64,000 bases of DNA from Flavobacteriales bacterium (GTDB lineage Bacteria; Bacteroidota; Bacteroidia; CAIKAF01): positions 117,084 to 181,083 of the forward strand of contig JAOABX010000003.1 of NCBI GenBank assembly GCA_026418175.1. The letters are read 5' to 3'. Numbering within the stretch: position 1 is the first letter of the stretch; each line of letters starts with the position of its first letter. A program made the position numbers and the translations under genes. Below are positions 4,735-58,520 of the stretch, one piece after another. The notes beneath the pieces were generated by a model. It worked only from the letters and a program-made list of their open reading frames with translations, searched no databases and had not been told where the DNA came from.

Positions 4735-6571
4735 ATAACGAAAGCGTTCCTTTCTGCACTTCCCCTGTATCCATTCGTTTCAGTACATAAAAATATACAC
4801 CGGAGGTAGCTTTTTCTCCGGTGTTATTTATTTTACCATTCCATAGTTGGTTGGGATCTTCTGTTTCAAAAACTGCATTTCCCCAGCGGTTATAAATGAT
4901 TAAATGAAATTTTAAAGGCAATCCAGGTATAAAAAGTATATCGTTTATTCCGTCATCATTGGGTGAAAATACATTGGGTACAACAATCGGACAAGATAAC
5001 CCGACAGTGAAGTTTTTAACGATAGTATCACTAGTAAATTCATTCGTAGCAATCAATGTAACCGAATAGGTTCCTGATGCGTTGTAGCATATATTTTGTG
5101 GGTTTTGCTCGTTTGAAGTATCAGGAATAGCTCCGGGGAAAAACCAACGCCAGGAGGTAGGTTCGTATTTAGTTTGATCTTTGAAGCTCAGGCAGCGATT
5201 TGGGCAGTTTTCAATAGATTGTGTAGTGTCAAATTGAGCAACTGGTGTAATATATTCACATTCTGTTTTACGAGATATGTTTGGTACTAAAACTATTGGG
5301 GTGTGTGATGCAACGTTCACTATTGGATCGGAAACTGTAAGGGTGATATTTGCCTCTATCAGTGGCTGCGCTGTAGTAAATAAGTTAATTGATTCTGAAA
5401 AGCATCCTGCATTGCCTTGCAAGTCTGTTTTTACTAAAGCGGCATCTCGTTGTGCAGTAGGGAGTCGAATATCTCCTGTCCAAATGAAACCCTTACCGGG
5501 TAAAAATTGCAATGCATATGGATAATTTGTAAAGTTAGGCGAAATGGGATAATGAGCAATCCATTCTTTGGTTCCATTGGTATTATACAATGCCAGAAAC
5601 ACATCCCGTTCATTCATTCCTCCCAAATCGCCAATGGCGGCAATTCGTCCGTTGGCAATACAGATATCACGGATTATTTCTCCTTGAGAAGTACCGCCAT
5701 CTAAAAAGATTTTGTTTTTTATAATACCATACTCATCACATTTAAGTAAGAATCCATCAAAATTTGAATTTGTAAAAAAACTATATCCTCCCAGCCAAAT
5801 TTCGTCCAAATCATTTATTCGTAACGACGTAGGCATATCGTCATACGTAGTGCTGTACACTTTGCTCCAAATTAAATTCCCGGAGGCATTTAACCTCATC
5901 AAAACTATATCTGTAAAAACATTCATTCGGGAAGCTGCAACGATCAAATCTCCGTTTGAAAGTTCACCACAACGTACTGGTATTAACTCTCCTTGTGCAC
6001 TGATAATTTTATCCCATAATGGGTTCCCGTTTCCATCTGTTTTAATAACTAAAATTTGTTCGGTGTTTATATTGTCGTAGGCTGATACAATTAACAAGTA
6101 ACCACCGGATTTAAGCTCTAAAACATCCACTCCGCGATCGCTAATGCTTATTGTGTAAAATTTACACCATTGGGGAAGTCCAGCTAAATTTAGTTTTAAT
6201 AAAAAAGCTTTTCGTTCACCCCCCATTCCAAAATCACCGGCTACACCGGTGATAATATAGCCGCCATCGGTTGTTTGAATGAGCTTGGATGCCAAACATG
6301 AATTTAAAATTCCATATTCCTGTATCCATTGATATTCGCCAGTTTCATCGGTTTTAATAACACCAATATTTATTTCGTTGTTTTGAGATGGATTGGTTGG
6401 AGTATTTATACACATGGCATACCCTTGATCGGAAGTTTGTAATACATAGGTGCCATAGTCATCTTCATTATTTCCATAGCTTTTTAAAAAAGTTATTTGC
6501 CCTGTAATGTGAACAGTGATGAGTAACAAAAGAAATAATCCTATAAATTTCATATGCAGGGATGAAGCCAT
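4727..6571 (-). CDS. Secreted repeat (beta-propeller-like) protein with a PKD-like domain and a type B T9SS C-terminal domain (gliding-motility-associated CTD)
   Basis: Signal peptide; an alternative ATG at 6553 gives MKFIGLFLLLL. The C-terminus PNVFSPNDDGINDILFIPGLPLKFHLIIYNRWGNAVF...GVYFYVLK is the type B (CHU_C-like) T9SS CTD. It overlaps the convergent YceI gene by 8 nt. Confidence 0.7.
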   Translation of the reverse strand: MASSLHMKFIGLFLLLLITVHITGQITFLKSYGNNEDDYGTYVLQTSDQGYAMCINTPTNPSQNNEINIGVIKTDETGEYQWIQEYGILNSCLASKLIQTTDGGYIITGVAGDFGMGGERKAFLLKLNLAGLPQWCKFYTISISDRGVDVLELKSGGYLLIVSAYDNINTEQILVIKTDGNGNPLWDKIISAQGELIPVRCGELSNGDLIVAASRMNVFTDIVLMRLNASGNLIWSKVYSTTYDDMPTSLRINDLDEIWLGGYSFFTNSNFDGFLLKCDEYGIIKNKIFLDGGTSQGEIIRDICIANGRIAAIGDLGGMNERDVFLALYNTNGTKEWIAHYPISPNFTNYPYALQFLPGKGFIWTGDIRLPTAQRDAALVKTDLQGNAGCFSESINLFTTAQPLIEANITLTVSDPIVNVASHTPIVLVPNISRKTECEYITPVAQFDTTQSIENCPNRCLSFKDQTKYEPTSWRWFFPGAIPDTSNEQNPQNICYNASGTYSVTLIATNEFTSDTIVKNFTVGLSCPIVVPNVFSPNDDGINDILFIPGLPLKFHLIIYNRWGNAVFETEDPNQLWNGKINNTGEKATSGVYFYVLKRMDTGEVQKGTLSLFN

Positions 6572-9798: not shown

Positions 9799-10392
9799 TT
9801 AAGTCTTGAATAATTCTGTGGCATTTACTTCAATGGTTTCGATACTTTGAATTTTTTCCGGACTGCATATATGTGATGGGTGAGAAGGCGGGGTGGGTAA
9901 TTTATACAAATACCAAAATCCCTTCCGATCATCAATGGTGGCATAAGTTTGTTGAAGGCGAATACTGTGAAGCGGAATACGCATTCCTCTTCCGTCAGCT
10001 TTCATTACGGCTTCTTTCATGGTCCATGCATCAAAAAATCGTTCTTGCGGATCAGGTGCAGAAAGTATCCATTGCATTTCCTGAGGAGAAAATTGCTTGG
10101 TAAATTTTATAACATCAATGGGTCGAATTTTTTCGCAATCAATACCAATTAATCCATTTCCTTGTAGCACAGCACAAGCAACTACATGGCCCGAGTGTGT
10201 TATGTTAAATGGAAAAAACGAAGGAAGTTGGGGTTTACCCATCGTGTCAGGAATGTATTGTTCAAGGATTTTATGATTGAATTCCAGTTTATGGATTGCT
10301 TTTAAGAGTAATAATTTTCCTGCAAGAAGTCTAATCCGGTCATCGTTTTTTCGGTATTGAAAAATTTCTTCCCGAAGTTTTTCTGGCAACAA
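9799..10392 (-). CDS. 4'-phosphopantetheinyl transferase (Sfp/EntD-type)
   Basis: Motifs GIDCEKIR and WTMKEAVMKADG match the PPTase consensus (G-x-D...W-x-x-KEA-x-x-K). The reading frame is open upstream to 10473 with no ATG (LVLYTWIDNLDIQIEENW...), so the real start is probably a non-ATG codon; the track uses TTG at 10390-10392. Confidence 0.65.
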   Translation of the reverse strand: MLPEKLREEIFQYRKNDDRIRLLAGKLLLLKAIHKLEFNHKILEQYIPDTMGKPQLPSFFPFNITHSGHVVACAVLQGNGLIGIDCEKIRPIDVIKFTKQFSPQEMQWILSAPDPQERFFDAWTMKEAVMKADGRGMRIPLHSIRLQQTYATIDDRKGFWYLYKLPTPPSHPSHICSPEKIQSIETIEVNATELFKT

Positions 10393-10462
10393 TTGTAGCC
10401 AGTTCTCCTCAATCTGGATGTCCAGGTTATCAATCCAAGTATATAAAACCAGTGCTTTCAGG

Positions 10463-11158
10463 TCAGTATTTGCTCAGGGTTTGATTTATCATTCCACAAA
10501 GTTCTGCGATGTGATCAAAAATCCAAAAATGATCACCCTCCCAACGTTCAAATCGAAAATTGCCACTTGTTTCTTTTTTCCAATCTGTTAGCTGGTCATC
10601 CGGTACATTTTCACGGGTTCCGCAAATTACTGTCATATCCACCGGATAGGGTGGTTGTGGGATGTATTTATATGTATCAATGGCATCAAAATCAGACCGA
10701 ATTACCGGTAGAAAAATCTGAAGCAGTTCTTCGTTATTCAGCACAGCTTCTGGCATTCCTTTAAGTTCTTTTAAATGCGCTACAAATTCATCATTCGTCA
10801 TCAAACTGCGTTTCTTGTTGTAATTACGGCTGGGAGCAATTTTGCTGGTAAGAAACAAATGCTTGGGTAACGGAAGTTTGTCTTCCCTAATATGCTGGGT
10901 AATTAAATGAGCCAAATATGCCCCCATTGAATGGCCAAAAATGGCATACGGTTCTTTAATTTGAGGCTTAAATTGCTTGTAGTATTCATCAGCAATTAAG
11001 TATAAATTCTTCAACAAAGGCTCTTTTATTCTTCGGCCTTTGCCCGGAGCTTCTCCATTGATCATTTGAATAGCCGGATCAAGAAAGGGCTCAAATTTGG
11101 CATAGGAAGTTTCATTGCCTCCGCCAAACGGCAGCATAAATAATTGAAATTGCTTCAC
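10463..11158 (-). CDS. Type II thioesterase (alpha/beta hydrolase, GrsT/TEII-like)
   Basis: 231 aa; nucleophile elbow GHSMGAYLA; C-terminal GDHFW; size and layout typical of editing thioesterases of NRPS/PKS/fatty-acyl systems. Confidence 0.65.
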   Translation of the reverse strand: MKQFQLFMLPFGGGNETSYAKFEPFLDPAIQMINGEAPGKGRRIKEPLLKNLYLIADEYYKQFKPQIKEPYAIFGHSMGAYLAHLITQHIREDKLPLPKHLFLTSKIAPSRNYNKKRSLMTNDEFVAHLKELKGMPEAVLNNEELLQIFLPVIRSDFDAIDTYKYIPQPPYPVDMTVICGTRENVPDDQLTDWKKETSGNFRFERWEGDHFWIFDHIAELCGMINQTLSKY

Positions 11159-11217: not shown

Positions 11218-13065
11218 TTAGTGAAGAATTAGTTTTTCTACATGTCGAAATCCATTGGAAGTAAATTCCATTAGATATATTCCTTTACGAATGCCTGAAA
11301 AGTCAAATGACTGTATAATGCTTCCCTTGGGATTAGCAATGAGTTCTTCATACACTTGCTCACCAAGCATATTGAAAACCCGAACTTGTAAATCATTATC
11401 AAGTAATTGGATATGCAAATTTACCAACCCTTGGGATGGATTTGGATATACAACTATCTGATTAGCTTCAAATGGATTTTCCAGGTTGAGATAAAACTGT
11501 ATGCAATTTGATGTGTCATAGCAGCCGGCAGTATTGGTTGCTACAAGGCAATAAGTGCCATTAAATGCTGGAGTATAAGTGGGTTGTATGCCTTCAGGAG
11601 CAGGAATAATACTATAATTGAATCCATTAAAATAAAGCCACTGGTAGGTGTAATTCCCACTCAAAGCGGTGGTGAGGGTTCCATTACCATTTACGCTAAT
11701 ACCCACATTCGAAAATCCGGGAGGCGGCATGGGTAATGCACTGATAGTAATAGGTTGGGTGGTAACGTTACATCCGGATATTGGGTTAATAATTTTTACT
11801 TTGTACGATCCTGGCTGCCCGGTTGTATAGGTATTTGAATTACCGGTTTGAACCGTTAATGTATCATTCAGGAACCATTCATACAGCATGCCCGGATATA
11901 CACTTAAAGTGGTTGTTTCGTAAGCACAAATAGCTTGCAAGGTGGCTTCAATTGTATCATTTACAGGGGTTGGGTAAATGCGAATGGTATCAGTAACTAT
12001 GATTTGATTTGCTTGGACTAATCCAATAGTAAAACTTGCTGTGTACCAATTGGGATGATTGATGTTGTAAGTTCCAGGCCCTGTTACAGTTCCTGCATAG
12101 GGCGCAGCAATATCGTTTTGACTTATGGCGTCTACTTCTGTTACGTTGAGTGAATAGGAAGTACCTGTTAATACAAAATTGATATTGTTCCAAGTTGGTA
12201 AACAGTTGTCAGAAATTTCGGGTCCATTCCAGCTAGAAGATCCGGTAGTGAATGTAGGGCGAAGATCAGCATTACCGTTCGAACAGTTTAATTCTTCAAT
12301 ATCTCCGCACCACCAAGTTTGACCACAGGCATTGATGGTGAGTGAATTTAAACGCATATTGAAAACAGTAGTAGTACATGTAACCGGATAGTTTCCGGGG
12401 GCAGGATAAAACTGCGGTGGAGGGTTTTGGCCGTTATATGTATTACCATTTCCAAAATCCCAACTCCACTGGGTGATTTGTGGTAATGGGAAATTTAATA
12501 AAGGCGAAAAAGTAACCCATGCAGAGTCACAGGCTTGCGATGGATTAAATGAAAAGCCGGCATTGCTACCGCTTCCAAGAGTAATTGATAACGGTAAGTT
12601 AAAAACTTGATTTTGCGACTGGTTTCCAATAGGAGTTGATACGGTTCCTCGAATGGTTATTACAACCGTATAATTTCCTTGTGAAATAGGAGTTCCACAG
12701 AAATTTATGCTGGCCAAAGTACCATTGGGTTGCGGATTATAGGTACAATTTCCCACATTACAATTCCATGAAATACCTGTTGGGAGTCCGGTTACATTTA
12801 AAATTTTCATTTCAATAAAATCCAACGAATCAAATAAGCCGCCTGATTGTACACTGGCATCTACTCTTCTGGGAGCCCAAAAAGATATGGTGTCGCTATA
12901 ATACTGACCAACTACGCCATTGTTTAGCACGCCACATGGCCCCATTGTATTAATACAGGCAGGATTAGGAGAACCATTACATTGACTGTAAGCCGAATAA
13001 ATAATAAATAAACTAAAACTTAAAATTAAAATGGATTTTAAATAAACATGTAAATTTTTTTTCAT
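11218..13065 (-). CDS. Secreted PKD-like repeat protein with a type A T9SS C-terminal sorting domain; paralog of 58521..60386
   Basis: Likely ATG at 13063-13065 (MKKNLHVYLKSILILSFSLFIIYSAYSQ signal peptide; the track start at 13071 is TTG). The C-terminus VVYPNPSQGLVNLHIQ...GIYLMEF is a T9SS CTD. Block-wise similarity to the 58521..60386 product (e.g. NAGFSFNPSQACDS vs NAGFSMAPPLGCEP; WSWDFGNGNTYNGQNPPPQFYPAPGNYPV vs YSWNFGNMTQSNAQNPPPVLYSTAGNYPV). Confidence 0.7.
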   Translation of the reverse strand: MKKNLHVYLKSILILSFSLFIIYSAYSQCNGSPNPACINTMGPCGVLNNGVVGQYYSDTISFWAPRRVDASVQSGGLFDSLDFIEMKILNVTGLPTGISWNCNVGNCTYNPQPNGTLASINFCGTPISQGNYTVVITIRGTVSTPIGNQSQNQVFNLPLSITLGSGSNAGFSFNPSQACDSAWVTFSPLLNFPLPQITQWSWDFGNGNTYNGQNPPPQFYPAPGNYPVTCTTTVFNMRLNSLTINACGQTWWCGDIEELNCSNGNADLRPTFTTGSSSWNGPEISDNCLPTWNNINFVLTGTSYSLNVTEVDAISQNDIAAPYAGTVTGPGTYNINHPNWYTASFTIGLVQANQIIVTDTIRIYPTPVNDTIEATLQAICAYETTTLSVYPGMLYEWFLNDTLTVQTGNSNTYTTGQPGSYKVKIINPISGCNVTTQPITISALPMPPPGFSNVGISVNGNGTLTTALSGNYTYQWLYFNGFNYSIIPAPEGIQPTYTPAFNGTYCLVATNTAGCYDTSNCIQFYLNLENPFEANQIVVYPNPSQGLVNLHIQLLDNDLQVRVFNMLGEQVYEELIANPKGSIIQSFDFSGIRKGIYLMEFTSNGFRHVEKLILH

Positions 13066-13071
13066 GGTCAA

Positions 13072-14190
13072 TTATATTTTAGTTATTAAAAATTTCTTTT
13101 TTGTTAATCTATCAACAATCCAAGCAATTAATAAATAAACAGGAGTAATTATAAAATAAAAGAACATGGACAAGAAAGTATATCCATGATATTTTGAAGC
13201 GTGTATGCCAATTACATAATCTATCAAAGGGAAAAAAGCCATATATGCAATAATTGTTATAAATGGGATGAGAAATGACCCTCCAATCATTACTGTATTA
13301 AATTTTTTATTTAAATATTCTTTTCTGTATTTAATAAAAGCAATATAGTGAATAGAAGAAAAAATTAAACCTAAAATAAGGGATAGGTAAAATGGAGAAA
13401 TTTTTATCAAAATGTTGGCCCAAAAGTTTGGCTTTGGATGTATTTCAATATTAATATAATCTTGCGGAACACCCGAAAAAACCCATTTGGCCTGGTATGG
13501 TAGCGTTCCTTCAGCTGGCTCACCTAAATTAGTTATCACGTGAGTTTTATCATTAGCAATTGTAAGGGTTACACTTATAATTCCGACTTTACTCCAATAC
13601 TTTGCAGGAGAAAGAGAATACTTAAAAATATATTCATTAATCCAATCGTTTCTGTCAATCGAAGCGGAAGTCCAATACGTTACTTCAATCTTGTGCATGC
13701 CACTATCTAAACTTAATTCAAAGTATTTCATGTCATGCAAATTCATTATTTCATAATCTTCATAATCACTCCATTTAACAATAGCTTTGGGTTCTCCGGT
13801 CAATTCTTCGGGTTTATAGAGATAATAAAACCCATAAAAATTGTTTGTATCTGGAATGTAAAAGCTTTCCGGAACATCTAAAAGTTCTATAGGCTTTTCA
13901 TCCACTTTAATAGTAAAATTACTTCTAAAGTTGTATGCTAAAAAAAGCATGGGAACTTGCTTTCCGCTTTTTTTGCAATCAATGAGGTAGTTAATTTTAA
14001 CAAATGCATTTTGTATATCGTTACTTACAGAAATATGGATATCTTCCATAACAATTTCCACATATCTACTTATGAAAGCAGATGTTCCATATTGACCTGT
14101 AATTATAGGATTAGCCATGTTGGCATATAAAAAGCTTTTATTATATAATAAAAGCAACGCCGGTAAAAGAGTTGATTTTATTAAATTCAT
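13072..14190 (-). CDS. Hypothetical membrane protein (signal peptide, ~250-aa exported domain, C-terminal cluster of about four TM helices)
   Basis: 372 aa; no recognisable motifs. Its stop at 13072-13074 abuts the start of the downstream T9SS cargo gene, suggesting coupling. Confidence 0.4.
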   Translation of the reverse strand: MNLIKSTLLPALLLLYNKSFLYANMANPIITGQYGTSAFISRYVEIVMEDIHISVSNDIQNAFVKINYLIDCKKSGKQVPMLFLAYNFRSNFTIKVDEKPIELLDVPESFYIPDTNNFYGFYYLYKPEELTGEPKAIVKWSDYEDYEIMNLHDMKYFELSLDSGMHKIEVTYWTSASIDRNDWINEYIFKYSLSPAKYWSKVGIISVTLTIANDKTHVITNLGEPAEGTLPYQAKWVFSGVPQDYINIEIHPKPNFWANILIKISPFYLSLILGLIFSSIHYIAFIKYRKEYLNKKFNTVMIGGSFLIPFITIIAYMAFFPLIDYVIGIHASKYHGYTFLSMFFYFIITPVYLLIAWIVDRLTKKKFLITKI

Positions 14191-15143: not shown

Positions 15144-15216
15144 TGCGGGGTGGAGAAGTTGGTATCTCGTCGGGCTCATAACCCGAAGGCCGCTGGTTCG
15201 AGTCCAGCCCCCGCTA
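15144..15216 (+). tRNA. tRNA-Met (anticodon CAT), probably initiator tRNA-fMet
   Basis: Hand-folded cloverleaf: acceptor tgcgggg / ccccgct with an unpaired 1:72 (T.T); D-stem gaga / tctc; anticodon arm tcggg-CTCATAA-cccga with three consecutive G-C pairs next to the loop (an initiator hallmark); 5-nt variable loop; T-arm gctgg-TTCGAGT-ccagc; discriminator A; CCA not encoded. Confidence 0.8.
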
Positions 15217-15226
15217 CTAAATTTAA

Positions 15227-15252
15227 GCCGGTTTTACCGGCTTTTTATTTTT
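15227..15252 (+). terminator. Rho-independent terminator after the tRNA
   Basis: Hairpin gccgg-tttta-ccggc followed by TTTTTATTTTT. Confidence 0.6.
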
Positions 15253-15654
15253 AAACCACATATTTTCAATTTTGAATTGTTTGAATTCAGACAATTAACA
15301 ACATTTCATCTGTTTAATACCGAACATTCGAACTAATAGCACAACAAAAAAATTTTCTTAGCCATTACCATGCAAATATTAGCCAAGGCAGATAGTCTTA
15401 TTGAAGATAATAAATAGTGTATGAGGCTCTGAATGCATGAAGTATTAAAGTGAGGGCCTAGAAAATTTATAAAGCGATAGTAAAAGCAAGTAATAGGGAG
15501 TTAGGCTAATAAAAACGAAATGTTGTCTGTAAAATCCAACAAAACACATTGTTTTCAATATGCCTTTGACATTTTCTTTTAACGTTAATTTACATGAGTA
15601 ACCTACAGAATATCTTAATTTCGCGTAATGGCATTTGAGGTATAGAAACATATC

Positions 15655-17808
15655 ATGTTGAAGCAGATTAAAAAAATTATAAAAGTAACCGGAATTGGTT
15701 TTCTTATTTCAATAGCTCTGCTTTTCATATCCATGATTTTGTTACAGTTTGTTTTTTATCATCAGGTTTCCGGCAGACTAAAACAAATAATCGAGGGGAA
15801 CGAAGATATATCTATCCAAGTGGGTAGCCTGAATTTTAATCTATTTAAAGGGAATATTGCACTTACCCAGGTAATAGTCCATGATACTTCAGGCTTTTTT
15901 TATGTGGCTTGTGATTCAATGCTAATTAAAGGGATTAATCCAATTCCTCTTATTTTTAACAATACGCTTAGCATACATAAACTCCTTTTATCTAATGGTA
16001 GTATTGAAGTTAATACCAATAAAAAGAGTTTCAATATTGAAAAAAGGAAATCTTCCTGGATAGTTCATAAAACATTCATAAAAAATTTTGATGTTAAAAT
16101 TAATCATCCGCAAGTTGCAGTTCGACTCAAACTAGGGGCGTTTCAAACAGAGAAAGTCAATTCACGTAGTACAAAATTTTTACCTTTCAGTGTTGCAGAT
16201 GCTACAATATCCAATATTTTACTGAGTCGGGAAGAAAATTTTTTCTCACTGGATAGTATTCATATTCATTTAAAGGATGACTTATCCTCTATTCAGTTAA
16301 AAAATTTCAATGTTCTTGCGTTATCAAAAGTTTTAAAAAAAAGCTATGATACAGTTGTTTCACCGGTTAATGAATTTATAATTGATAAAATACAGATAGG
16401 CATTCCGGTTTATTATTTTAAATATGCTGATTTAAATAAGATACCAAGCATTGAAATTCCATTTTTGCATGTTAATGGCTTGCTAGTTAATTTGCAAAAA
16501 TATACCGAAGCCTTCAAAACGAAATCATCGGTTGTGTTTAATTCATTCCCGTTTGATTTTAATGTAAAGGAATTGATGATTCATAATGGAAGATTAAAGG
16601 TTTTGCATGATTCAATTATTCAGTTTGATTTTCTATTAAAATATTTAAAAGCAAGAAATTTACGAACAGATGCAACGTATAAAATTTATCCTTTAATAGC
16701 TGATGCAGTTGATGTTTCATTAAATGATATTTATTTTGGATTTAAAGATCAAATGCATCAAATAAATATTCATAAATTAAATTATGCTTCCGGGCAGAAC
16801 AGATTTCAAGCCGATAAAATAAATATTGGATCTTCGTTAGAAACGGAGGAATATTTTAAGCTGAAAAAATTTCAAACAGATATGCCTTCATTTGCATTAG
16901 GCACTATGGTGCTTGATGGATTAAATATATCAGCCCTTTTAAATAATAATCAATTTGTTTTTCGTAAAGTATGGGCTGATACCTTGGAATTAAAAATGAC
17001 AAGGGATAAAAATTATCCCTACGATTTAAAGAATTTTCCCCCAATGATTCAGGATCAAATTCTACAATTACCATTTATATTTTCTGTAGATACTGTATCA
17101 GTACAACATGGAGAAATAACTTATTATGAAATTCCGCAAGGAGCTACTCTTGATGATGCCGGAATGTTTCAGTTTACATCCGCCTCGCTAAATATGTATC
17201 AATGTACCAATGACACAAACAGGTTGCATCATAATGATACCTTGATGATACATTTTCGAGGTAAACTATATGGGCAAGGAGTTCTTAATGTTTTTGTTGA
17301 TATTCCGCTGCTTTCCAAATCATATTGGCATCGGGTGTATGGAACTATCGGAAAGTTTAATGCCCGTGAATTTAATCGTATTACCGTACCTGCAGTAGGT
17401 GTAAAATTAAAAGGTACAGTGAATGGGGGAGAATTTTATTTTGAAGCTAACAATGAATTTTCAACCGGGAATGTGGAATTATTGTTTGAAAAATTAAAAG
17501 TATCGGTACTTACTCAAACCGGTAGTGCAGCTAAATCACAAACAGATATATTAAAATCACTTGTAGCCAATGTGTTTATGGTACACGATAATCCTGAGCC
17601 AGGAAAAGAAGTAATGGTTGGAAAGATATACTATAAACGGAATGTGAATCGCTGGATGATAAATTTTTGGTGGAAGAGTTTACTGCAGGGTGTTCGTTCC
17701 ATTGTATTTGCCAAAGAGGTACAGCTTCGTGAGATGTCAGCATCTTTTAATGAATATAAAAAATTGCGTAAACAACGCGAAGAAATGGACCAATTAATGC
17801 AAGAATAA
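15655..17808 (+). CDS. Membrane-anchored large exported protein, possibly AsmA-like / DUF748-type outer-membrane biogenesis protein
   Basis: 717 aa; a single N-terminal TM anchor (GIGFLISIALLFISMILLQFVFY) then a long low-complexity region predicted as beta-rich. First gene of a tightly spaced three-gene + strand operon. The family assignment is weak. Confidence 0.3.
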   Translation: MLKQIKKIIKVTGIGFLISIALLFISMILLQFVFYHQVSGRLKQIIEGNEDISIQVGSLNFNLFKGNIALTQVIVHDTSGFFYVACDSMLIKGINPIPLIFNNTLSIHKLLLSNGSIEVNTNKKSFNIEKRKSSWIVHKTFIKNFDVKINHPQVAVRLKLGAFQTEKVNSRSTKFLPFSVADATISNILLSREENFFSLDSIHIHLKDDLSSIQLKNFNVLALSKVLKKSYDTVVSPVNEFIIDKIQIGIPVYYFKYADLNKIPSIEIPFLHVNGLLVNLQKYTEAFKTKSSVVFNSFPFDFNVKELMIHNGRLKVLHDSIIQFDFLLKYLKARNLRTDATYKIYPLIADAVDVSLNDIYFGFKDQMHQINIHKLNYASGQNRFQADKINIGSSLETEEYFKLKKFQTDMPSFALGTMVLDGLNISALLNNNQFVFRKVWADTLELKMTRDKNYPYDLKNFPPMIQDQILQLPFIFSVDTVSVQHGEITYYEIPQGATLDDAGMFQFTSASLNMYQCTNDTNRLHHNDTLMIHFRGKLYGQGVLNVFVDIPLLSKSYWHRVYGTIGKFNAREFNRITVPAVGVKLKGTVNGGEFYFEANNEFSTGNVELLFEKLKVSVLTQTGSAAKSQTDILKSLVANVFMVHDNPEPGKEVMVGKIYYKRNVNRWMINFWWKSLLQGVRSIVFAKEVQLREMSASFNEYKKLRKQREEMDQLMQE

Positions 17809-17811
17809 TAC

Positions 17812-18201
17812 ATGAAAAAAAAAGAAGTTTCACCGTATAATCAATCATTAAGTGAATTCAACAACAATCGAGAATTAGTTATAGGCACCATTTTTCAAAT
17901 AAATAAGGATTTTGCTTCATTGGGAGTAAATATTTCGGAATCTCTCCAAGCCAATGTATATCAAGTTATTTTTGATACCTTACGACCTTTGCTGGAAGAA
18001 CTATACGAGAATCAGCTTGAAAAATTTTATGGACTGATGTACACCATTGATGTTGACCATTCAAAAATAGATAAAGCATTTTTAAAACCAACCCTATCAT
18101 TGGCGTACGATGAAATCACTGATTTGGTTATACAACGTGAAATTTTGAAAGTAGCTACCCGAATTTGGTACAAAAATCAAAATCCTGCTCAGGAGATTTG
18201 A
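17812..18201 (+). CDS. Hypothetical small cytoplasmic protein
   Basis: 129 aa; ATG 3 nt after the upstream stop; no motifs recognised. Confidence 0.35.
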   Translation: MKKKEVSPYNQSLSEFNNNRELVIGTIFQINKDFASLGVNISESLQANVYQVIFDTLRPLLEELYENQLEKFYGLMYTIDVDHSKIDKAFLKPTLSLAYDEITDLVIQREILKVATRIWYKNQNPAQEI

Positions 18202-18210
18202 TTACATTTG

Positions 18211-21200
18211 ATGTACGGGCATATTGCTGGTATGAAAAGATTTCTAATTTCATTTATAGTATTTGCTGTATTTACTGTTGCGGCAGTAATACTTTCAGGC
18301 ATAAGCAAAGGCCCTGGTTATTATAACCGAAAAACAAAAAAAATACAGAAAACGCTTTTTGAAAAAGAGGCGTATGCAAGCAGCTTGCTGCAGCAACTTG
18401 GTAAGGATTTTTACACTGACTCTTCGCGAAGCTTATTTTATTCCCGAAATCAAGGGCGTTACCGTACTATTAGCGAAAAAGGAATTAGTTTGTTTGCCTA
18501 TCATAAAGACTCTCTTATTTTTTGGACCACCAGCCATATCCCCGTTCCAGCCTATTCATTTGATGAAGATTTTTTATTTGATGTAGTTAAGCTAAAAAAT
18601 GGATGGTACCGATTGATTAAATATCGAAATCAAGATTTATTGCTTCTAGGCCTAATTCTGATTAAACATGATTATTTTATCAACAATGAGTTTTTAAAAG
18701 ACAAATTTCACCCTGATTTTGAAATTCATGAGGCCTGCGAATTAACTTTTGAAGAGGGAGATTCAAATTATGAAATTAAAGATACCGACGGCTCTTTTCT
18801 TTTTGGATTGTTATTTCGTAAGGAAAAACAAAACATGCTGCGATATCCTGTACTTTCAGGGATATTTTTTTTTATTGCAATTCTTTTGTTTTTTATTGTT
18901 GGATACTTTGCCCAGTTTATTCCATTTTTCTTATCCAGGCCTTGGCTACATTTTCTATTTTTAGTTCTTATTGTTGTATTTGTTAGGTATGTAAATGTAG
19001 TTTACAAATGGCCGAAGGTATTATACCAATTACCGCTATTTGACCCGATTCATTTTGCCAGTTCTTGGTGGCTCCCTTCGTTGGGAGATTTTATTTTACA
19101 TGCGATTGCTGTTAGCGTCCTATTGATTTTATTATTTAAATATCTTAAAAATGTACGATTGAAGCAAACTTCTCCTCATCAGGTTATTGGTTGGGTTTAT
19201 TTATTTTCTTTTATTTTATCTTTTTCCTCCTGGATTGTGTTTGAACTATTCAGAAGTTTGATATTTGACTCTAGTATTTCTTTTGACCTTTCCAATTTAC
19301 TTGTTCTTGATGTATATAGTTTTATAGGATTTGGCGTGATTACGCTCATGCTTTTAAACTATCTACTGGCTGTTTATTTTTTTACTCGTACCCTAGTTTT
19401 ACTTCGTAAATTATCGTTTTGGGAAATTGCACTTCACGCAGGAGTGGCATTTTCGCTGGGAGGGCTTATTCAGTCAGCATTTATGCATTATAACGTATTA
19501 GCTTTGTTTTTTCCATACCTCATTTTTATTTCGGTACTCGCAATTCACTCCAGTAAAAAGCCCGAAATTAGTTTTTATACTTTTTCGCCCACTATCCTGG
19601 TATTTACTGTGTATGCTACGTATTTGCTTTTTATGCTAAATAATGAAAAAGAACATGAGAAGCGGCAGGTTTTGGCCTTTAAAATTTCTGAAGAACAGGA
19701 TCATGTGGCGGAATTTCTTTTTATCGAAGCAGAAGATAAAATGAAGAAAGATGCGGAGTTGAAAAGAATGCTTTTTGAAAATGATGTATATTACCCCAAA
19801 GAATTTTTTGAACGTATTGCTCAAAATTATTTTAGCGGATATTGGTCAAAATATATTCTCCATATTACGCCGTTTAATATGAACGATTATCGGCTCTTGG
19901 CTGATTCACTTCGTGCTGATCCACAATTACGGTATTATGAAAATGCAATTACTTTGTTTGGAAAACCTACGGCTAGTCCATCCCTATATTTTATTGATAA
20001 TAATGTTGGAAAGATTAATTACCTCGCTAAAATTGAATTTGTAAAGCAATTGCCGCTTGGATTTGAGAAAAAAGTAATCTTTATAGAATTTATTTCAAAA
20101 ATTGTTACACAAGTTACCGGTTTCCCGGAACTACTCTTGGATGAATCTATTACAAGGCCCGTTGAAATCGGGTCTTATTCTTATGCCATTTATAAAGCAT
20201 CTGAATTAAACGTATCAGGCGGAGAATTTGCTTATCCACTAAATATGGATGAGTTTAATAAAGTTTCTGATGAAATAGGATATATACGTAGCCGTGGATT
20301 TGAACATCTAGTATATCGCACACCGGGTGGGAAAGTGGTTGTAATCAGTAAACCTCAGTTGCGTTGGCAGGATTTTCTCAGTCCGTTTGCCTATTTATTA
20401 ATTTATTTTTCGTGTATTTTATTACTTTATCTTATTTATAGGTATTACTTCCTAAGTGATAATCGCGTTCTGCAGTTAAATTTTAAAACTCGTATTCAGT
20501 TTTCTATCTTATCAATTCTGCTTATTTCACTGGTTGTTGTGGGGCTTGGTATTAATAACTATGTCATTACACAGTTTAATCGAAAAAATAAACTTGCGAT
20601 TAATGAAAAACTTAATTCAATATTAACTGAGCTTCGAGTTCGTATTGAGGAGCAGGAAGAAGAAGTGCTTGATGAAAATTATATTAACTACTTGCTTCGA
20701 GGTTTTTCAAATGTATTTTTTACAGACATAAATCTTTATAGCCCCAATGGTACCTTGCTCGCCACATCACGTGAATCTGTTTATAACGAAGGATTATTAT
20801 CGCGGCAAATGGATCCGGAAGCTTTTTATGAAATGACCATTCGGAAGCAACCCCGATATATTCATCAGGAAAAAATCGGAGAATTTAGTTATTTAAGTGC
20901 TTACGCTGCTTTTCGTAATGGCAGCAATGAGATTATTGGCTATCTGAATTTGCCGTATTTTCTTCGACAAAAAGAATTGGGTGAAGAATTAGCCTCTTCG
21001 TTGTTGGCACTTATTAATATATACAGTTTATTGATTGCTGTTTCAATGCTAGTTACATTTGTTATTGCCAATCGCCTTACTGAGCCACTTACCATTCTTC
21101 AGGAAAAAATAGGAAAAATAAAATTGGGAAGAAAAAATGAAATGATTGACTATACTGCCAATGATGAGATTGGCAGTTTGGTAAATGAATACAATCGTAT

Positions 21201-21918
21201 GATCAAAGAACTGGAAGCCAGTGCTGAACTTTTGGCTCGTTCAGAACGTGAAACAGCCTGGCGTGAAATGGCTAAACAGGTGGCGCATGAAGTAAAAAAT
21301 CCGCTAACTCCTATGAAGTTGAGCGTGCAATACCTGGTAAAAGCGTGGGATGATAAACGTCCTGATTTTGATGAACGCCTCCGAAAATTTAAAGATGCCA
21401 TGATCGAACAAATAGAAACACTTTCGGCCATAGCAAGTGAATTCTCCTATTTTGCAAAAATGCCTACGGCCATTAAAACAGAAGTAGATTTGGTAGAAAT
21501 GCTTACCAACTGCCTGGAGTTTTTTAGAAACAATGAACACAATGTATCAATACGCTTAGATTTGGGATCTATAAAAAAAGCGTTGATTTTAGCAGACAGG
21601 GATCAGATGCTACGAGTGTTTAATAACCTAATACGAAATGCCATTCAAGCCATACCAGAAGGCCGGCAGGGAGAAATTATCATCCGTTTATTGAAGGAAG
21701 GGGATTATTATATTGCTATAGTAAAAGATAACGGGGTAGGAATACCAGAAGAATTAAGGGATAAAATTTTTGCTCCCAATTTTACCACAAAGAGTTCAGG
21801 CATGGGACTTGGATTGGCTATGACAAGAACCATAATTGAAAACATGGAAGGAGAAATAAGTTTTGAAACCGAACTTGGTAAAGGAACGGAATTTAAGGTA
21901 AAACTTAAAGCAATATAA
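18211..21918 (+). CDS. Giant multi-pass membrane sensor histidine kinase (N-terminal ~7-TM region, second TM-flanked periplasmic sensor domain, HAMP, HisKA, HATPase_c)
   Basis: HisKA H-box HEVKNPLTPM; N-box LIRNAIQA; G-boxes DNGVGIP and GMGLGLAM; a HAMP-like linker after the TM at ~aa 935-955; at least 10 hydrophobic TM segments in the first 760 aa. No response regulator is encoded nearby. Confidence 0.8.
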   Translation: MYGHIAGMKRFLISFIVFAVFTVAAVILSGISKGPGYYNRKTKKIQKTLFEKEAYASSLLQQLGKDFYTDSSRSLFYSRNQGRYRTISEKGISLFAYHKDSLIFWTTSHIPVPAYSFDEDFLFDVVKLKNGWYRLIKYRNQDLLLLGLILIKHDYFINNEFLKDKFHPDFEIHEACELTFEEGDSNYEIKDTDGSFLFGLLFRKEKQNMLRYPVLSGIFFFIAILLFFIVGYFAQFIPFFLSRPWLHFLFLVLIVVFVRYVNVVYKWPKVLYQLPLFDPIHFASSWWLPSLGDFILHAIAVSVLLILLFKYLKNVRLKQTSPHQVIGWVYLFSFILSFSSWIVFELFRSLIFDSSISFDLSNLLVLDVYSFIGFGVITLMLLNYLLAVYFFTRTLVLLRKLSFWEIALHAGVAFSLGGLIQSAFMHYNVLALFFPYLIFISVLAIHSSKKPEISFYTFSPTILVFTVYATYLLFMLNNEKEHEKRQVLAFKISEEQDHVAEFLFIEAEDKMKKDAELKRMLFENDVYYPKEFFERIAQNYFSGYWSKYILHITPFNMNDYRLLADSLRADPQLRYYENAITLFGKPTASPSLYFIDNNVGKINYLAKIEFVKQLPLGFEKKVIFIEFISKIVTQVTGFPELLLDESITRPVEIGSYSYAIYKASELNVSGGEFAYPLNMDEFNKVSDEIGYIRSRGFEHLVYRTPGGKVVVISKPQLRWQDFLSPFAYLLIYFSCILLLYLIYRYYFLSDNRVLQLNFKTRIQFSILSILLISLVVVGLGINNYVITQFNRKNKLAINEKLNSILTELRVRIEEQEEEVLDENYINYLLRGFSNVFFTDINLYSPNGTLLATSRESVYNEGLLSRQMDPEAFYEMTIRKQPRYIHQEKIGEFSYLSAYAAFRNGSNEIIGYLNLPYFLRQKELGEELASSLLALINIYSLLIAVSMLVTFVIANRLTEPLTILQEKIGKIKLGRKNEMIDYTANDEIGSLVNEYNRMIKELEASAELLARSERETAWREMAKQVAHEVKNPLTPMKLSVQYLVKAWDDKRPDFDERLRKFKDAMIEQIETLSAIASEFSYFAKMPTAIKTEVDLVEMLTNCLEFFRNNEHNVSIRLDLGSIKKALILADRDQMLRVFNNLIRNAIQAIPEGRQGEIIIRLLKEGDYYIAIVKDNGVGIPEELRDKIFAPNFTTKSSGMGLGLAMTRTIIENMEGEISFETELGKGTEFKVKLKAI

Positions 21919-21968: not shown

Positions 21969-22751
21969 ATGTCGTATAAAAATATTATCTCAGTAAAACA
22001 AGATGGTGTTTGTTTGCTTACAATCAATCGGCCTGATAAACTTAACGCCCTCAATAAAGAAACTATTGCAGAAATTAGCCATTGTGTAAGCACGTGTGGC
22101 ACGAATGATGAAGTGAAGGTGATAATTATTACTGGCTCTGGCGAAAAGGCATTTGTGGCTGGAGCTGATATTTCAGAGTTTGCTCATTTTGATAAGGAAA
22201 ACGGGAAAAAATTGAGTGCAGAAGGCCATGAAAAACTTTTTGATTTGGTTGAAAATACATCCAAGCCGGTAATTGCTGCTATCAATGGCTTTGCTTTAGG
22301 AGGTGGGTTAGAGTTGGCCATGTCATGTCATATACGCTATGCTTCAGAAAATGCAAAGTTGGGGTTGCCAGAAGTTTCGCTGGGAGTAATTCCGGGGTAT
22401 GGAGGAACGCAACGTTTACCACGCTTGGTAGGTAAAGGCAGAGCCATGGAAATGATTTTTACAGGTGGAATGATTACAGCAGCAGAAGCAGCACAATATG
22501 GTTTGGTGAATAAAGTCGTTCCTCAGACAGAGTTGATATCAGCTTGTATGGAATTAGCACAAAAAATAATGAGAAACTCACCTTCTGCTATCGCACAGGC
22601 AATACGTGCAGTAAATGCTGGGTACAGGCATGATATAAATGGTTTTGAAGTAGAAATAGAGTCCTTTGGAAATTGTTTTGATTCTGCTGATTTTAAAGAA
22701 GGCACTACTGCCTTCCTTGAAAAAAGGAAGCCCCAGTTTACCGGTAAATAA
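21969..22751 (+). CDS. Enoyl-CoA hydratase/isomerase (crotonase family)
   Basis: 260 aa; motifs ITGSGEKAFVAGADISEF and AAINGFALGGGLELAMSCH (oxyanion hole). Confidence 0.8.
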   Translation: MSYKNIISVKQDGVCLLTINRPDKLNALNKETIAEISHCVSTCGTNDEVKVIIITGSGEKAFVAGADISEFAHFDKENGKKLSAEGHEKLFDLVENTSKPVIAAINGFALGGGLELAMSCHIRYASENAKLGLPEVSLGVIPGYGGTQRLPRLVGKGRAMEMIFTGGMITAAEAAQYGLVNKVVPQTELISACMELAQKIMRNSPSAIAQAIRAVNAGYRHDINGFEVEIESFGNCFDSADFKEGTTAFLEKRKPQFTGK

Positions 22752-25279: not shown

Positions 25280-27265
25280 ATGAAAGATTTTAAAAAAATA
25301 TTTTCTGTTTCATTCATTGCAGTTTTGTTTGCTTCGTATGTCTTAATAAATTCAATGAATGAATTAGGATTTTACCGTTCCGACTCCTTGCAAAACTTTG
25401 TTGAAGAGCCTGTTGATAATTCATTTCATACAAATAAAGAAAAGCAAGTATTAAAGAAATTATTAAGTAACCGTTCAGTATTGGAACCCGGTCAATATTT
25501 TCATAATTCGCAGTTATGTGGTACTTGCCACGGGTATGATCCTACCGGAAATTCCAGCCATGATTCACAAGGAAATGATGTGAATTTGCACGATGATTGG
25601 ATGTCAAGTATGATGGCACTATCGGCCAAAGATCCTTTCTGGAGAGCTAAGGTAAGTCACGAAATATTAGTAAATCCTGGAATTTCATTAGAAATTCAAA
25701 ATAAATGTACTTCTTGCCATGCACCCCAGGGTCATTATACCGCTTTATTTAATGGACAGACGCATTATACCTTGGCTGATTTGTATAATGATACGTTAGG
25801 ACTTGATGGGGTTTCTTGTGTTGCATGTCATTCAATTGGTCCCAATGGATTGGGCAATATGTTTACCGGTCATATCCCCTATGATACGTTGTTTCAACTT
25901 TATGGGCCATTCATAGACCCATTAACCGGCCCCATGCAACTATACACAGGCTTTACTCCTACATATAGCCCACATGTAAGCGAGGGAAGATTTTGTTCTC
26001 CTTGTCATACACTAATAACTCAATCAGTTGATTTAAACGGAATTCCTACAGGCAGATCTTTCGTAGAGCAAGCAACCTATCATGAATGGGTTAATTCTAA
26101 TTTTTCATTGGATTATATAAGTTGCCAGCAATGCCACATGCCACGCTTACAAGATAGTATTATTATTGCTAAAGACATGTCAACCAAACGATTCCCCTTC
26201 AATCAGCATATTTTTATGGGTAGTAACGAATTTATGCTGAAACTAATTAAAAATAATAAAGCTGATTTGGGCGTGGAGGTACCTGATTCAAATTTTGATT
26301 CAACCATCGAGGCCACATTGGTTAATTTACAGCAAAAAACATTAACCATGGACTTGATTGTTGATAGTGTTACGTTTGACACAGCATATTTTTCTGTGAA
26401 ATTGGTAAATCTGGCTGGGCATAAATTTCCATCCGGTTATCCTAGCCGTAGAGCAATTTTACAATTTGCGGTAGTAACATTGACCGGCGATACATTATTT
26501 AAATCCGGTTTTTTTGATGGTAACTATGAAGTACAAGGGATAAATTCAACGTTTGAACCGCATTATGATATTATTTCTCAACCTGATCAGGTTCAAATTT
26601 ATGAAATGGTGATGGGGGATGTTAATGGAAATAAAACTACAGTATTATTACGAGCAGATACCATGCTGAAAGATAACCGATTAGTGCCGGAGGGCTTTTC
26701 AACTTCACATCCTGTGTATGATACAACCCGAATTATATTGGGTATTGCAGATGACGATTTTAATAAGTTTAATAATGGTAATGAAGGGAGTGGTTGGGAT
26801 ATTATTCAGTACAGGGTGCCAATCAACGGATATAGTCAGCCATTCAATGTAGTGTCACGGATTTATTATCAGGCTGTACCTCCTGGTTATCTTGCTGAAA
26901 TGTTTAGCCATACGAGCAATGAAATTGATCTTTTTAAAGATTTGTATACAGCGGCTGATAAAGAGCCGGTGCTGATGGCAGAAAGAACCATTCAAGGAAT
27001 TGCCCTTAGTGTTCAAAATCAACCGCAAATAGCTCCTACCATTTGGCCTGATCCTACTTCCGATGGTTGGATTAATATTCGTTGGAAAGATATTCAAGCC
27101 GATGAAGTGGTGGTTATGAATGCAAATGGGCAGATCGTTACAATTTATCACATTCAGCCAGGAATTCAAACAGTTAGAATCCAACTTCCGGAATCATCTG
27201 GCATATATTTGGTTGATGTGCGTGCTTCTGGAAGGCGGTCTGTACAAAAGGTTATCCGAAAATAA
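25280..27265 (+). CDS. Secreted pentaheme c-type cytochrome with a type A T9SS C-terminal sorting domain
   Basis: N-terminal hydrophobic signal/anchor; five CXXCH motifs in the first ~300 aa (CGTCH, CTSCH, CVACH, CSPCH, CQQCH); a ~280-aa middle region with no cysteine motifs; C-terminus IWPDPTSDGWINIRW...GIYLVDVRASG is a T9SS CTD. Confidence 0.65.
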   Translation: MKDFKKIFSVSFIAVLFASYVLINSMNELGFYRSDSLQNFVEEPVDNSFHTNKEKQVLKKLLSNRSVLEPGQYFHNSQLCGTCHGYDPTGNSSHDSQGNDVNLHDDWMSSMMALSAKDPFWRAKVSHEILVNPGISLEIQNKCTSCHAPQGHYTALFNGQTHYTLADLYNDTLGLDGVSCVACHSIGPNGLGNMFTGHIPYDTLFQLYGPFIDPLTGPMQLYTGFTPTYSPHVSEGRFCSPCHTLITQSVDLNGIPTGRSFVEQATYHEWVNSNFSLDYISCQQCHMPRLQDSIIIAKDMSTKRFPFNQHIFMGSNEFMLKLIKNNKADLGVEVPDSNFDSTIEATLVNLQQKTLTMDLIVDSVTFDTAYFSVKLVNLAGHKFPSGYPSRRAILQFAVVTLTGDTLFKSGFFDGNYEVQGINSTFEPHYDIISQPDQVQIYEMVMGDVNGNKTTVLLRADTMLKDNRLVPEGFSTSHPVYDTTRIILGIADDDFNKFNNGNEGSGWDIIQYRVPINGYSQPFNVVSRIYYQAVPPGYLAEMFSHTSNEIDLFKDLYTAADKEPVLMAERTIQGIALSVQNQPQIAPTIWPDPTSDGWINIRWKDIQADEVVVMNANGQIVTIYHIQPGIQTVRIQLPESSGIYLVDVRASGRRSVQKVIRK

Positions 27266-32697: not shown

Positions 32698-34197
32698 CTA
32701 TCTTTTAATCAATGATTGTTGATGTATTTTTTCGCTACTGATTAGTTGCATGAGATAAATGCCCGGAGCAAGGTCATCAATCATGATAATTGAATTTGTA
32801 TTATTACTACTTAAGTTGGTTGATTTAATCAATTTTCCATCCATTGAATAAAAGTTTAATTTTTCAAATGAATGATTTGATATGGATGGTACAATCACAT
32901 AATTATCAGCCGGATTTGGATAAATCATCAAAGTAGTTTCTAACTCATCATTTATACCTACAAATGGATTTATTATTACCGTACGACAAGTACTTGCTTC
33001 ACACCCTCCGATACCTGTTACAGTTAAACAAACCGTAAATGTATCAACCGAAGTATAGACATGAGTAGGATTTTGAAGCGTTGAAGTATTTCCATCTCCG
33101 AAATCCCATGACCAGGAAGTGCCACCTGTTGAGTTATCTATGAATTGTACATTAAAGCCAGAAACGTTGCTATTAAAGTTAGCACTTGGATATGCTCCAA
33201 TGATCAAATTGCTTCCATTATCAGTTCCATTCATCGAAGGATTGGAGGAAACTACCCGGATGCGATACCCTGTTCCGGCAGCAGTGCTTCCAGGTATTGT
33301 TGCATTTATTGATCCTGATGTGGTGGATGTGATACTGCCGATTGGAGTTGGAGAAGCAAAAGATCCCAAGGCATCAGAAAGTTGAGCTGTAAAAACATTA
33401 CCTGAATTAAATGTTCCTGATGCTGAATAATTAACTACAACTGCATCATTGGGACATAGTGTATCTTCAGAAACAGAGGTAGTTGTAATAGTATTTGTTA
33501 CAGCAGCAGTTCCTGAAATTACAATTTCATCTACTGAAAGGGGGGGGTCTGATGCGCTGAACGAAGAATTATTTACAAAACGAAATCCAAAGCGCAAGGT
33601 AGCTTGATTGTTCCAAATAGCATTCGTTTGAGTTAAAGTTTGCCAAGAGGAAACATTGTAAATATTTCCTAATTGTAATTGCCAGGTAGCTCCCCCATTG
33701 GTACTATAATATAATTCACCATAGGTGGCAGAAGAGCCTGCGCATAAATAATAACAGGAAAAAGTAACGTTGGTATATCCAAGCGTTGAAATATCGTTGC
33801 TCATCTTAGCAAAATAATTTTGATTACCATTACATAAAAACCCACCATCCGACGCTAAAAAGTTAGCATTACTGATACCCGCAGCTTGTGCTGCTTGATT
33901 TACGATATGTAAATAATTACTATTCGGTGAGCCAGTTATTGCTCCCGGTTGACTGGGAGTATTTCCAACGGAAGTAGAAAAACCAAAGCAAGGTTCATTA
34001 AATGATCCACCGTTATAGCTGTTATTAACTACCCAAAGATTATACCCGTTAGTAACTGAACTTACATCTGATGAATTAAGGGTAAATGTGTGAGTAGCAC
34101 CATTAAAATTTTCAGAATACAAGGTAGTTTGCGAATATATTTTTATTAATGGAAATCCTAAAGCAAATAATAATAGTAGAAGTTTTCTCATAATCAT
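32698..34197 (-). CDS. Secreted T9SS cargo protein: N-terminal ~240-aa domain, one copy of the GNVFTAQLSD module, a PKD-like domain (WSWDFGDGNTS) and a T9SS CTD
   Basis: Signal peptide; aa 266-333 GNVFTAQLSDALGSFASPTPIGSITSTTSGSINATIPGSTAAGTGYRIRVVSSNPSMNGTDNGSNL; PKD signature WSWDFGDGNT; CTD IYPNPADNYVIVPS...GIYLMQL. Confidence 0.7.
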   Translation of the reverse strand: MIMRKLLLLLFALGFPLIKIYSQTTLYSENFNGATHTFTLNSSDVSSVTNGYNLWVVNNSYNGGSFNEPCFGFSTSVGNTPSQPGAITGSPNSNYLHIVNQAAQAAGISNANFLASDGGFLCNGNQNYFAKMSNDISTLGYTNVTFSCYYLCAGSSATYGELYYSTNGGATWQLQLGNIYNVSSWQTLTQTNAIWNNQATLRFGFRFVNNSSFSASDPPLSVDEIVISGTAAVTNTITTTSVSEDTLCPNDAVVVNYSASGTFNSGNVFTAQLSDALGSFASPTPIGSITSTTSGSINATIPGSTAAGTGYRIRVVSSNPSMNGTDNGSNLIIGAYPSANFNSNVSGFNVQFIDNSTGGTSWSWDFGDGNTSTLQNPTHVYTSVDTFTVCLTVTGIGGCEASTCRTVIINPFVGINDELETTLMIYPNPADNYVIVPSISNHSFEKLNFYSMDGKLIKSTNLSSNNTNSIIMIDDLAPGIYLMQLISSEKIHQQSLIKR

Positions 34198-58429: not shown

Positions 58430-58464
58430 TGTAATTATACTTTATTCAAAAGTAAGAATAAATA

Positions 58465-58497
58465 AAAAGCCTTTCAAAATTTTTTTGAAAGGCTTTT
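58465..58497 (-). terminator. Rho-independent terminator after 58521..60386
   Basis: Near-perfect palindrome aaaagcctttcaaaa / ttttgaaaggctttt with T-runs on both sides. Confidence 0.65.
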
Positions 58498-58520
58498 TAT
58501 TGGTTTGATTTACAAGAAAA

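Follow-up and report, generated by a model that had tools for sequence, protein, structure and literature searches.

A sensor histidine kinase with twelve predicted transmembrane helices from a large, uncharacterised Bacteroidota family

Here we describe a sensor histidine kinase encoded in a 64,000-nucleotide stretch of contig JAOABX010000003.1 from a Flavobacteriales bacterium (assembly GCA_026418175.1; the whole stretch is referred to below as the window), where it is the last of three closely spaced genes, g1, g2 and the kinase gene. On balance, we regard it as a catalytically competent HisKA-type kinase from a large, uncharacterised and architecture-invariant Bacteroidota family, with 12 transmembrane (TM) helices, a composite sensor lying outside the cytoplasm, and a response regulator encoded at an unlinked site. 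Most of what is known of two-component signalling in Bacteroidota comes from glycan-sensing hybrid systems and PorX/PorY.

Results

The kinase core is intact

Pfam analysis placed HAMP, HisKA and HATPase_c domains in series at the C-terminus of the kinase (Table 1), as had been proposed in an earlier reading of the window made from its letters alone (the original prediction). In the window kinase, HisKA scored 32.3 bits against a cutoff of 26.9 and HATPase_c 84.2 bits, while HAMP, at 24.1 bits, fell just below its cutoff of 25. HAMP was matched in 23 of 28 diverse family members (best 3e-9), and the AlphaFold model described below showed two helices following TM12, at the HAMP position. An alignment of the same 28 members revealed that the phospho-acceptor His1027, in an AHEVKNPLTP motif, is invariant in all of them, as are N1140/N1144, D1174-G-x-G1178, F1188 and G1198-x-G-x-G1202, which make up the N, G1, F and G2 motifs. 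Because His1027 and these motifs are invariant, the kinase should be enzymatically active. Conservation along the protein peaked in DHp, where it reached at least 90% in 33 of 82 columns. No PAS domain was detected by Pfam between HAMP and DHp.

The affinities of the kinase core were examined by profile and structure searches. Its best NCBIfam matches were LIC_11548, AtoS (1.1e-45) and ZraS (1.6e-33), all far below the equivalog cutoffs, and the closest solved structure was that of ZraS (PDB 9jfj, 7e-24). AtoS and ZraS, kinases whose partners are NtrC-family (sigma-54) regulators, thus have the closest kinase cores by sequence; however, the similarity is limited to the last ~230–300 residues, and the sensor regions are unrelated. 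Family members carry the KEGG Orthology label of NtrY (K13598) in IMG. The kinase resembles NtrY in its H-box/DHp type (AHEIKNPLTP) and in having a multi-TM N-terminus followed by HAMP, but NtrY has 4 TM helices, a PAS domain and an adjacent ntrX, whereas the protein described here has 12 TM helices, three outside domains, no PAS domain by Pfam and no adjacent regulator. Among the features that define membership of K13598, the H-box type alone was common to both.

Twelve TM helices and three extracytoplasmic domains are predicted

Hydropathy analysis of the kinase gave 11 strong TM segments and a twelfth that was weaker. Residues 9–1005 were modelled with AlphaFold from 114 sequences (pLDDT 84.7, pTM 0.77), and the model showed one TM helix, an alpha/beta domain, eight TM helices, a stretch of ~240 residues with two alpha/beta modules, a TM hairpin, a third alpha/beta domain, and a final TM helix leading into HAMP. 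The charge pattern across 28 sequences followed the positive-inside rule, with the six predicted cytoplasmic segments (the N-terminus and five loops) having a net charge of +1.6 to +2.3 and the three predicted outside loops one of −0.3 to −1.5. Since the model and the charge pattern agree, the kinase is predicted to have 12 TM helices arranged as 1 + 8 + 2 + 1, with both termini inside and three large domains outside the cytoplasm. The original prediction had proposed about 10 TM helices, beginning with an N-terminal block of seven or more; the block is present as eight helices, and it is preceded by TM1 and by a domain (residues 36–210) that had been overlooked. The same model and charge pattern place residues 479–720, previously taken for a cytoplasmic insert of ~240 residues, on the outside. 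Topology prediction did not reduce the protein to a few TM segments, an outcome that would have spoken against its description as a multi-helix sensor.

Domain 1 consists of a long stalk helix and an alpha/beta domain, in which W106 and N160 are invariant. The 8-helix block is best conserved in its outward loops, namely loop 3–4 (P269, F278, S291-L-G-D294) and loop 5–6 (S355, I357). Domain 2 comprises two successive alpha/beta modules and has 14 positions conserved at 90% or more, including D498, E502, Y541/545/549, GFPELLLD and H700. Domain 3, the TM-flanked extracytoplasmic domain before HAMP that the original prediction had already recognized, is predicted to be a single Cache/PDC fold between TM helices and resembles the sensor domain of WalK. 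The sCache_3_3 model scored 16.7 bits in the window kinase against a cutoff of 28.8, and at E ≤ 0.05 it was matched by 17 of the 28 members, the best match having 4.5e-6; the best structural matches were WalK, KinD, DctB, CitA and chemoreceptor Cache domains, in fold-search output that did not state the aligned region. Collectively, the conserved outward loops and the three outside domains point to a signal that is perceived either at the outer surface of the inner membrane or elsewhere outside the cytoplasm.

Pfam analysis of the 28 members returned nothing before residue ~780, that is, in domains 1 and 2 or the 8-helix block, and a sequence-profile search of the PDB with the sensor module gave 0 matches at E ≤ 1, leaving ~780 residues of sensor with neither a Pfam nor a PDB relative. 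The 7TMR-DISM and MASE-type Pfam models, the former of which had been suggested as a candidate, had no match at E ≤ 0.05 in any of the 28 members. The kinase resembles 7TMR-DISM and MASE1 proteins in combining an N-terminal extracellular domain, a block of 7–8 helices and a fused signalling output, but differs from them in having two more extracytoplasmic domains after the block and essentially a single output. WalK (YycG) of Firmicutes spans the membrane with 2 TM helices, contains a cytoplasmic PAS domain and is encoded beside WalR and the accessory genes yycHI; the kinase differs from it in its 12 TM helices and two additional extracytoplasmic domains, and in lacking both a PAS domain and an adjacent regulator. 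Internal duplication among domains 1, 2 and 3 was considered and rejected, as hhalign showed no relationship between them.

The family is widespread in Bacteroidota and is encoded apart from response regulators

A search with the sensor region retrieved 131 homologs, nearly all of 1205–1255 amino acids, with Solitalea, Mucilaginibacter, Pontibacter, Hymenobacter, Prolixibacteraceae and Cryomorphaceae as the named sources. When the sensor module (residues 9–724) was used as a profile, 3,700 clusters at 50% identity were retrieved, of which 2,068 had E ≤ 1e-30; among the top 150 clusters nearly all lengths were ~1,200–1,260 amino acids, and shorter matches of 649–986 amino acids look like fragments. 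Because the family is so nearly uniform in length, the sensor module appears tied essentially to one architecture and one output. All named sources and locus titles were Bacteroidota, cultured candidate carriers among them being Mucilaginibacter lappiensis ATCC BAA-1855, Pedobacter nutrimenti, Solitalea koreensis, Carboxylicivirga linearis and Pontibacter anaerobius, and the cluster names gave nothing beyond 'sensor histidine kinase'.

Genomic contexts were compared in 83 loci, comprising 80 from species genomes (all titled Bacteroidota) and 3 that were looked up directly. A receiver domain was encoded within 10 kb of the kinase in 4 of the 83 and adjacent to it in none, so that no adjacent cognate regulator came to light; the gene tables for loci L001–L003, L085 and L086 agree with this. 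In the window, phmmer searches of all six-frame pieces with CheY, PhoB, NtrC and Spo0F queries found no receiver domain, nor did Pfam analysis of most open reading frames (ORFs) of at least 100 codons, confirming the earlier statement that the 64 kb contain no response regulator. The description of the kinase as an orphan was thus apt as far as pairing is concerned, as a regulator is almost never near, and misleading if it is taken to mean rare or unique, given the ~3,700 clusters.

Around the genes of the family lies a loose assortment of housekeeping and envelope genes, without a regulator among them. One recurrent neighbour was rlmH (23S rRNA methyltransferase), which in many Bacteroidia (32 of 83 loci, L003–L081) directly precedes the kinase gene in the same orientation, with gaps of ~0–190 nt. 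This linkage holds down to 28% kinase identity and is an old, unexplained tie to a ribosome-modification gene. In 17 loci, the kinase gene was followed after ~50–200 nt by a gene for a CHU_C secreted protein of ~1,200 amino acids, a type-B cargo of a type IX secretion system (T9SS) (e.g. L038:13768–17451), and in 13 loci a PorP/SprF gene came after the kinase gene (e.g. L047:18158–19111); the loci with CHU_C and PorP/SprF genes span kinases that are 32–78% identical. Other recurrent neighbours were genes for an S-adenosylmethionine-dependent methyltransferase (12 loci), a Wzx-like flippase (11) and FabD (7). With no adjacent regulator in the 83 loci and with mostly housekeeping neighbours, synteny was rejected as a guide to function. 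Homologs of g1 and g2 were found in none of the 83 loci, g2 having also been sought with a hidden Markov model.

The conserved unit of the clade is g2–kinase–hydratase

The three genes lie in the same orientation on the + strand, with gaps of 3 nt between g1 and g2 and 6 nt between g2 and the kinase gene, if the latter starts at TTG 18208, bearing out the spacing of 3–6 nt given in the original prediction (Table 1). Conserved homologs were found for each of the three, and they are therefore real genes rather than chance ORFs. Homologs of the kinase have 1228 amino acids and begin with MKRF, where the gene call of a close relative also begins; for this reason, the kinase probably starts at ATG 18232, 30 nt after g2, giving a protein of 1228 amino acids. 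No terminator-like site was found between the kinase gene and the downstream enoyl-CoA hydratase/isomerase gene, and the two may be co-transcribed.

Table 1. Predicted features of the g1–g2–kinase locus and its upstream region, in window coordinates
Feature	Coordinates	Strand	Details
tRNA-Met (anticodon CAT)	15144..15217	+	ARAGORN; Rfam tRNA 64.9 bits
Terminator-like hairpin and T-run	15225..15243	+	8-bp stem, 5 GC pairs, tail TTTATTTTTA
Untranslated AT-rich sequence upstream of g1	15250..15654	+	~400 bp
g1	15655..17808	+	717 aa, single N-terminal TM anchor
g2	17812..18201	+	129 aa, soluble, all-helical
Sensor histidine kinase ORF	18208..21918	+	1236 aa counted from TTG 18208
TM1, in to out	18235..18300	+	residues ~10–31
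Extracytoplasmic domain 1	18313..18837	+	residues ~36–210 (~170 aa), between TM1 and 8-TM block
8-helix TM block	18847..19641	+	residues ~214–478
Extracytoplasmic domain 2	19642..20367	+	residues ~479–720 (~244 aa)
TM10–TM11 hairpin	20368..20556	+	residues ~721–783; short, positively charged cytoplasmic loop
Extracytoplasmic domain 3, single Cache/PDC	20557..20997	+	residues ~784–930
TM12 and HAMP	20998..21216	+	residues ~931–953 and 952–1003
HisKA/DHp and HATPase_c	21259..21909	+	residues 1018–1085 and 1130–1234
Enoyl-CoA hydratase/isomerase gene	21969..22751	+	50 nt 3' of kinase gene

The predicted structure of g2 is all-helical and soluble (pLDDT 82.5); a family search gave no match, and a fold search against the PDB gave no relative, all hits having E > 1. 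Homologs of g2 were found directly upstream of kinases that are 57% and 48% identical to the window kinase, on the same strand, and the most distant g2 homolog found also adjoins a kinase gene. These homologs are 25–26% identical to g2 and share 19 invariant positions with it. At each such locus an enoyl-CoA hydratase gene comes after the kinase gene and g1 is absent, and the hydratase gene follows the kinase gene in every clade relative examined. Because all three are kept while g1 is absent, the conserved unit of the window's clade is g2–kinase–hydratase. The idea that g2 is an Hpt or receiver domain was rejected because the protein lacks a conserved His, is all-helical and matches no PDB fold. 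It may be a clade-specific cytoplasmic accessory protein of the kinase.

The product of g1, an AsmA-like anchored protein in the original prediction, does have one N-terminal TM anchor, which is followed by a long soluble region, but the AsmA label proved weak. Pfam analysis of the window g1 found nothing at E ≤ 0.1 except the unrelated DUF5751 (15.6 bits). DUF748 was matched by 8 of 16 g1 homologs, of which only P0136 passed the cutoff (65.8 bits against 50) and the others scored 25–33 bits, and the matches are confined to the first ~170 positions of a profile of 1037. The membrane anchor and these eight homologs recall the DUF748/AsmA-like clan, whereas the window protein itself has no match and those of its homologs are partial, making a weak case for g1 as a distant DUF748 relative. 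The gene lies beside the kinase gene in close relatives only, and a distant g1 homolog has no kinase nearby. The 3-nt gap between g1 and g2 suggests that g1 is probably co-transcribed here, as a recent neighbour in a narrow clade, outside the conserved context of the family. Since it is absent from the 83 family loci and from the relatives with kinases 57% and 48% identical, which keep g2 and the hydratase gene, g1 cannot define what the family senses, and the proposed coupling of the kinase to an AsmA-like protein does not extend beyond the narrow clade.

The region upstream of g1 contains a tRNA gene

The gap between era and g1 measures 563 bp and contains a tRNA-Met(CAT) gene, which is a separate gene outside the operon. 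Downstream of it lies a terminator-like hairpin (Table 1), a predicted terminator that would close the tRNA-Met transcription unit. The ORF-free leader of ~400 bp noted earlier upstream of g1 is untranslated as described, although it is part of a longer gap with other occupants. The leader below the tRNA had no Rfam match near any family's gathering score, folded no better than shuffled sequences (z = 0.08) and had only weak repeats, giving no support to the suggestion that it confers complex regulation; no sigma-54 or Bacteroidota −7 motif stood out in it. On account of the absence of an Rfam match and the folding score, the leader was also rejected as a riboswitch or small RNA.

Other genes in the window

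T9SS cargo genes are dense in the window, where at least nine proteins carry a Por_Secre_tail or CHU_C tail (for example, those encoded at 4727–6571, 11218–13071, 32698–34197 and 56597–60386). The product of the gene at 1421–3016 (+) joins the two domains of a PHM/DBH-like copper type II ascorbate-dependent monooxygenase to a T9SS sorting domain at the C-terminus and would be a secreted copper monooxygenase, which is unusual in a bacterium. The gene at 25280–27265 (+) encodes a multihaem-cytochrome-like protein (Cytochrome_C7 and MtrC/MtrF-like matches) with a T9SS sorting tail, followed by the gene for a 990-residue FG-GAP/ASPIC T9SS cargo protein; the pair is kept in a relative (L087). At 9799–11158 (−), a 4'-phosphopantetheinyl transferase gene adjoins one for a type II thioesterase, beside a gene for a T9SS PKD-domain protein, and no synthase is visible near them. 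In addition, gldH (43428–43979) adjoins a PBP1a gene, and the ORFs at 36724–39744 (1006 amino acids), 49942–51789 (615), 60445–61863 (472) and 13072–14190 (372) had no Pfam match at the thresholds used. A PADLOC search for defence systems gave no matches.

Discussion

We propose that the composite sensor, formed by three periplasmic domains and two outward loops, would perceive a signal, whether within the periplasm or on the inner membrane's outer face. The signal would then be passed through TM12 and HAMP to DHp, which would control autophosphorylation at His1027 and either phosphotransfer to a response regulator encoded at another site or the dephosphorylation of that regulator. Because the kinase is unlinked everywhere and DHp is its best-conserved part, a single conserved partner regulator, with its gene elsewhere, would be expected. 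Our best guess is that this partner is an NtrC-type (sigma-54) regulator, because the H-box and the core affinities are NtrY/AtoS/ZraS-like. A more far-reaching proposal, which we put forward tentatively and consider somewhat less than an even prospect, is that the N-terminal ~780 residues, made up of domain 1, the 8-helix block with its conserved outward loops and domain 2, constitute an undescribed membrane-integrated sensor module that is joined almost solely to one kinase core and kept throughout Bacteroidota, serving the phylum as a core sensor of the envelope or periplasm, with a single conserved, unlinked regulator and with g2 as a new lineage-specific cytoplasmic accessory.

Several observations weigh against these proposals. 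The topology is a prediction, and the first 15 residues after TM9, which are placed outside, are rather basic (K+R 4.2). The fold class of domains 1 and 2 comes from predicted secondary structure only, and hhalign linked neither of them to Cache domains with a probability reaching 4%. The class of the partner is read from the H-box and from kinase-core similarity only, with no NCBIfam equivalog cutoff reached; for g2, the depth of homologs is shallow and there is no fold match. No characterised member of the family was found in the literature, in a survey whose coverage was incomplete, so that a published study may exist.

The short gaps (3 nt and 6–30 nt) and the persistence of the arrangement in close relatives could indicate that g1, g2 and the kinase form one functional unit, which would sense the state of the envelope or its lipids together with an AsmA-like g1 and receive a second, intracellular input through a cytoplasmic insert. 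The DUF748 similarity among g1 homologs and the loose recurrence of envelope and lipid genes near the kinase (FabD, the Wzx-like flippase, T9SS cargo with PorP/SprF, the hydratase) fit such a unit. We nevertheless consider it unlikely, as g1 is present at 0 of 83 loci and is missing from the clade relatives that keep g2–kinase–hydratase, distant g1 homologs have no kinase nearby, the window g1 has no Pfam match and the DUF748 cutoff is passed by a single one of the 16 homologs, and the supposed insert is extracytoplasmic by model and charge pattern. Conversely, the adjacency of the genes could be devoid of functional meaning, reflecting shared descent in one Flavobacteriales lineage, with the kinase acting alone as a conventional sensor. 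The neighbourhoods do vary by lineage and are mostly housekeeping (rlmH, nadC, yihY, a methyltransferase, FabD), and synteny within the clade reaches unrelated genes (tyrS and an epimerase). Yet g2 keeps its place just upstream of the kinase gene, in the same orientation, as kinase identity drops to 48% and the genes further upstream change, and the intergenic gaps are very short, and we therefore rate this explanation as rather doubtful, if appreciably more credible than the unit with g1.

A further question is whether the 8-helix block does more than hold the sensor in the membrane. Anchoring alone would not call for an uninterrupted series of eight TM helices bearing conserved polar residues (S291-L-G-D294, S355) at the boundary of the membrane, and the block could be a transporter-like or co-sensing permease module through which the kinase would report substrate flux rather than a periplasmic ligand. 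However, no Pfam transporter family was matched in any of the 28 members, and conservation lies in the outward loops, not along helix faces as a translocation path would predict, making this the least probable of the explanations considered. The reading that we prefer accordingly remains that of an active HisKA kinase with a composite outside sensor and an unlinked regulator.

The kinase is a protein of a familiar kind with a new architecture, and its family is large and uncharacterised. The locus itself is otherwise ordinary, and neither the AsmA coupling nor the cytoplasmic insert nor the leader stands up as a special feature. The family combines a fixed and elaborate architecture with a near-invariant phosphotransfer helix, and is annotated merely as 'histidine kinase'. 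If it represents a core sensor of the envelope or periplasm, it would provide an entry point to a conserved phylum circuit of one kinase, one partner and one signal, and it would add a new sensor module to domain catalogues.

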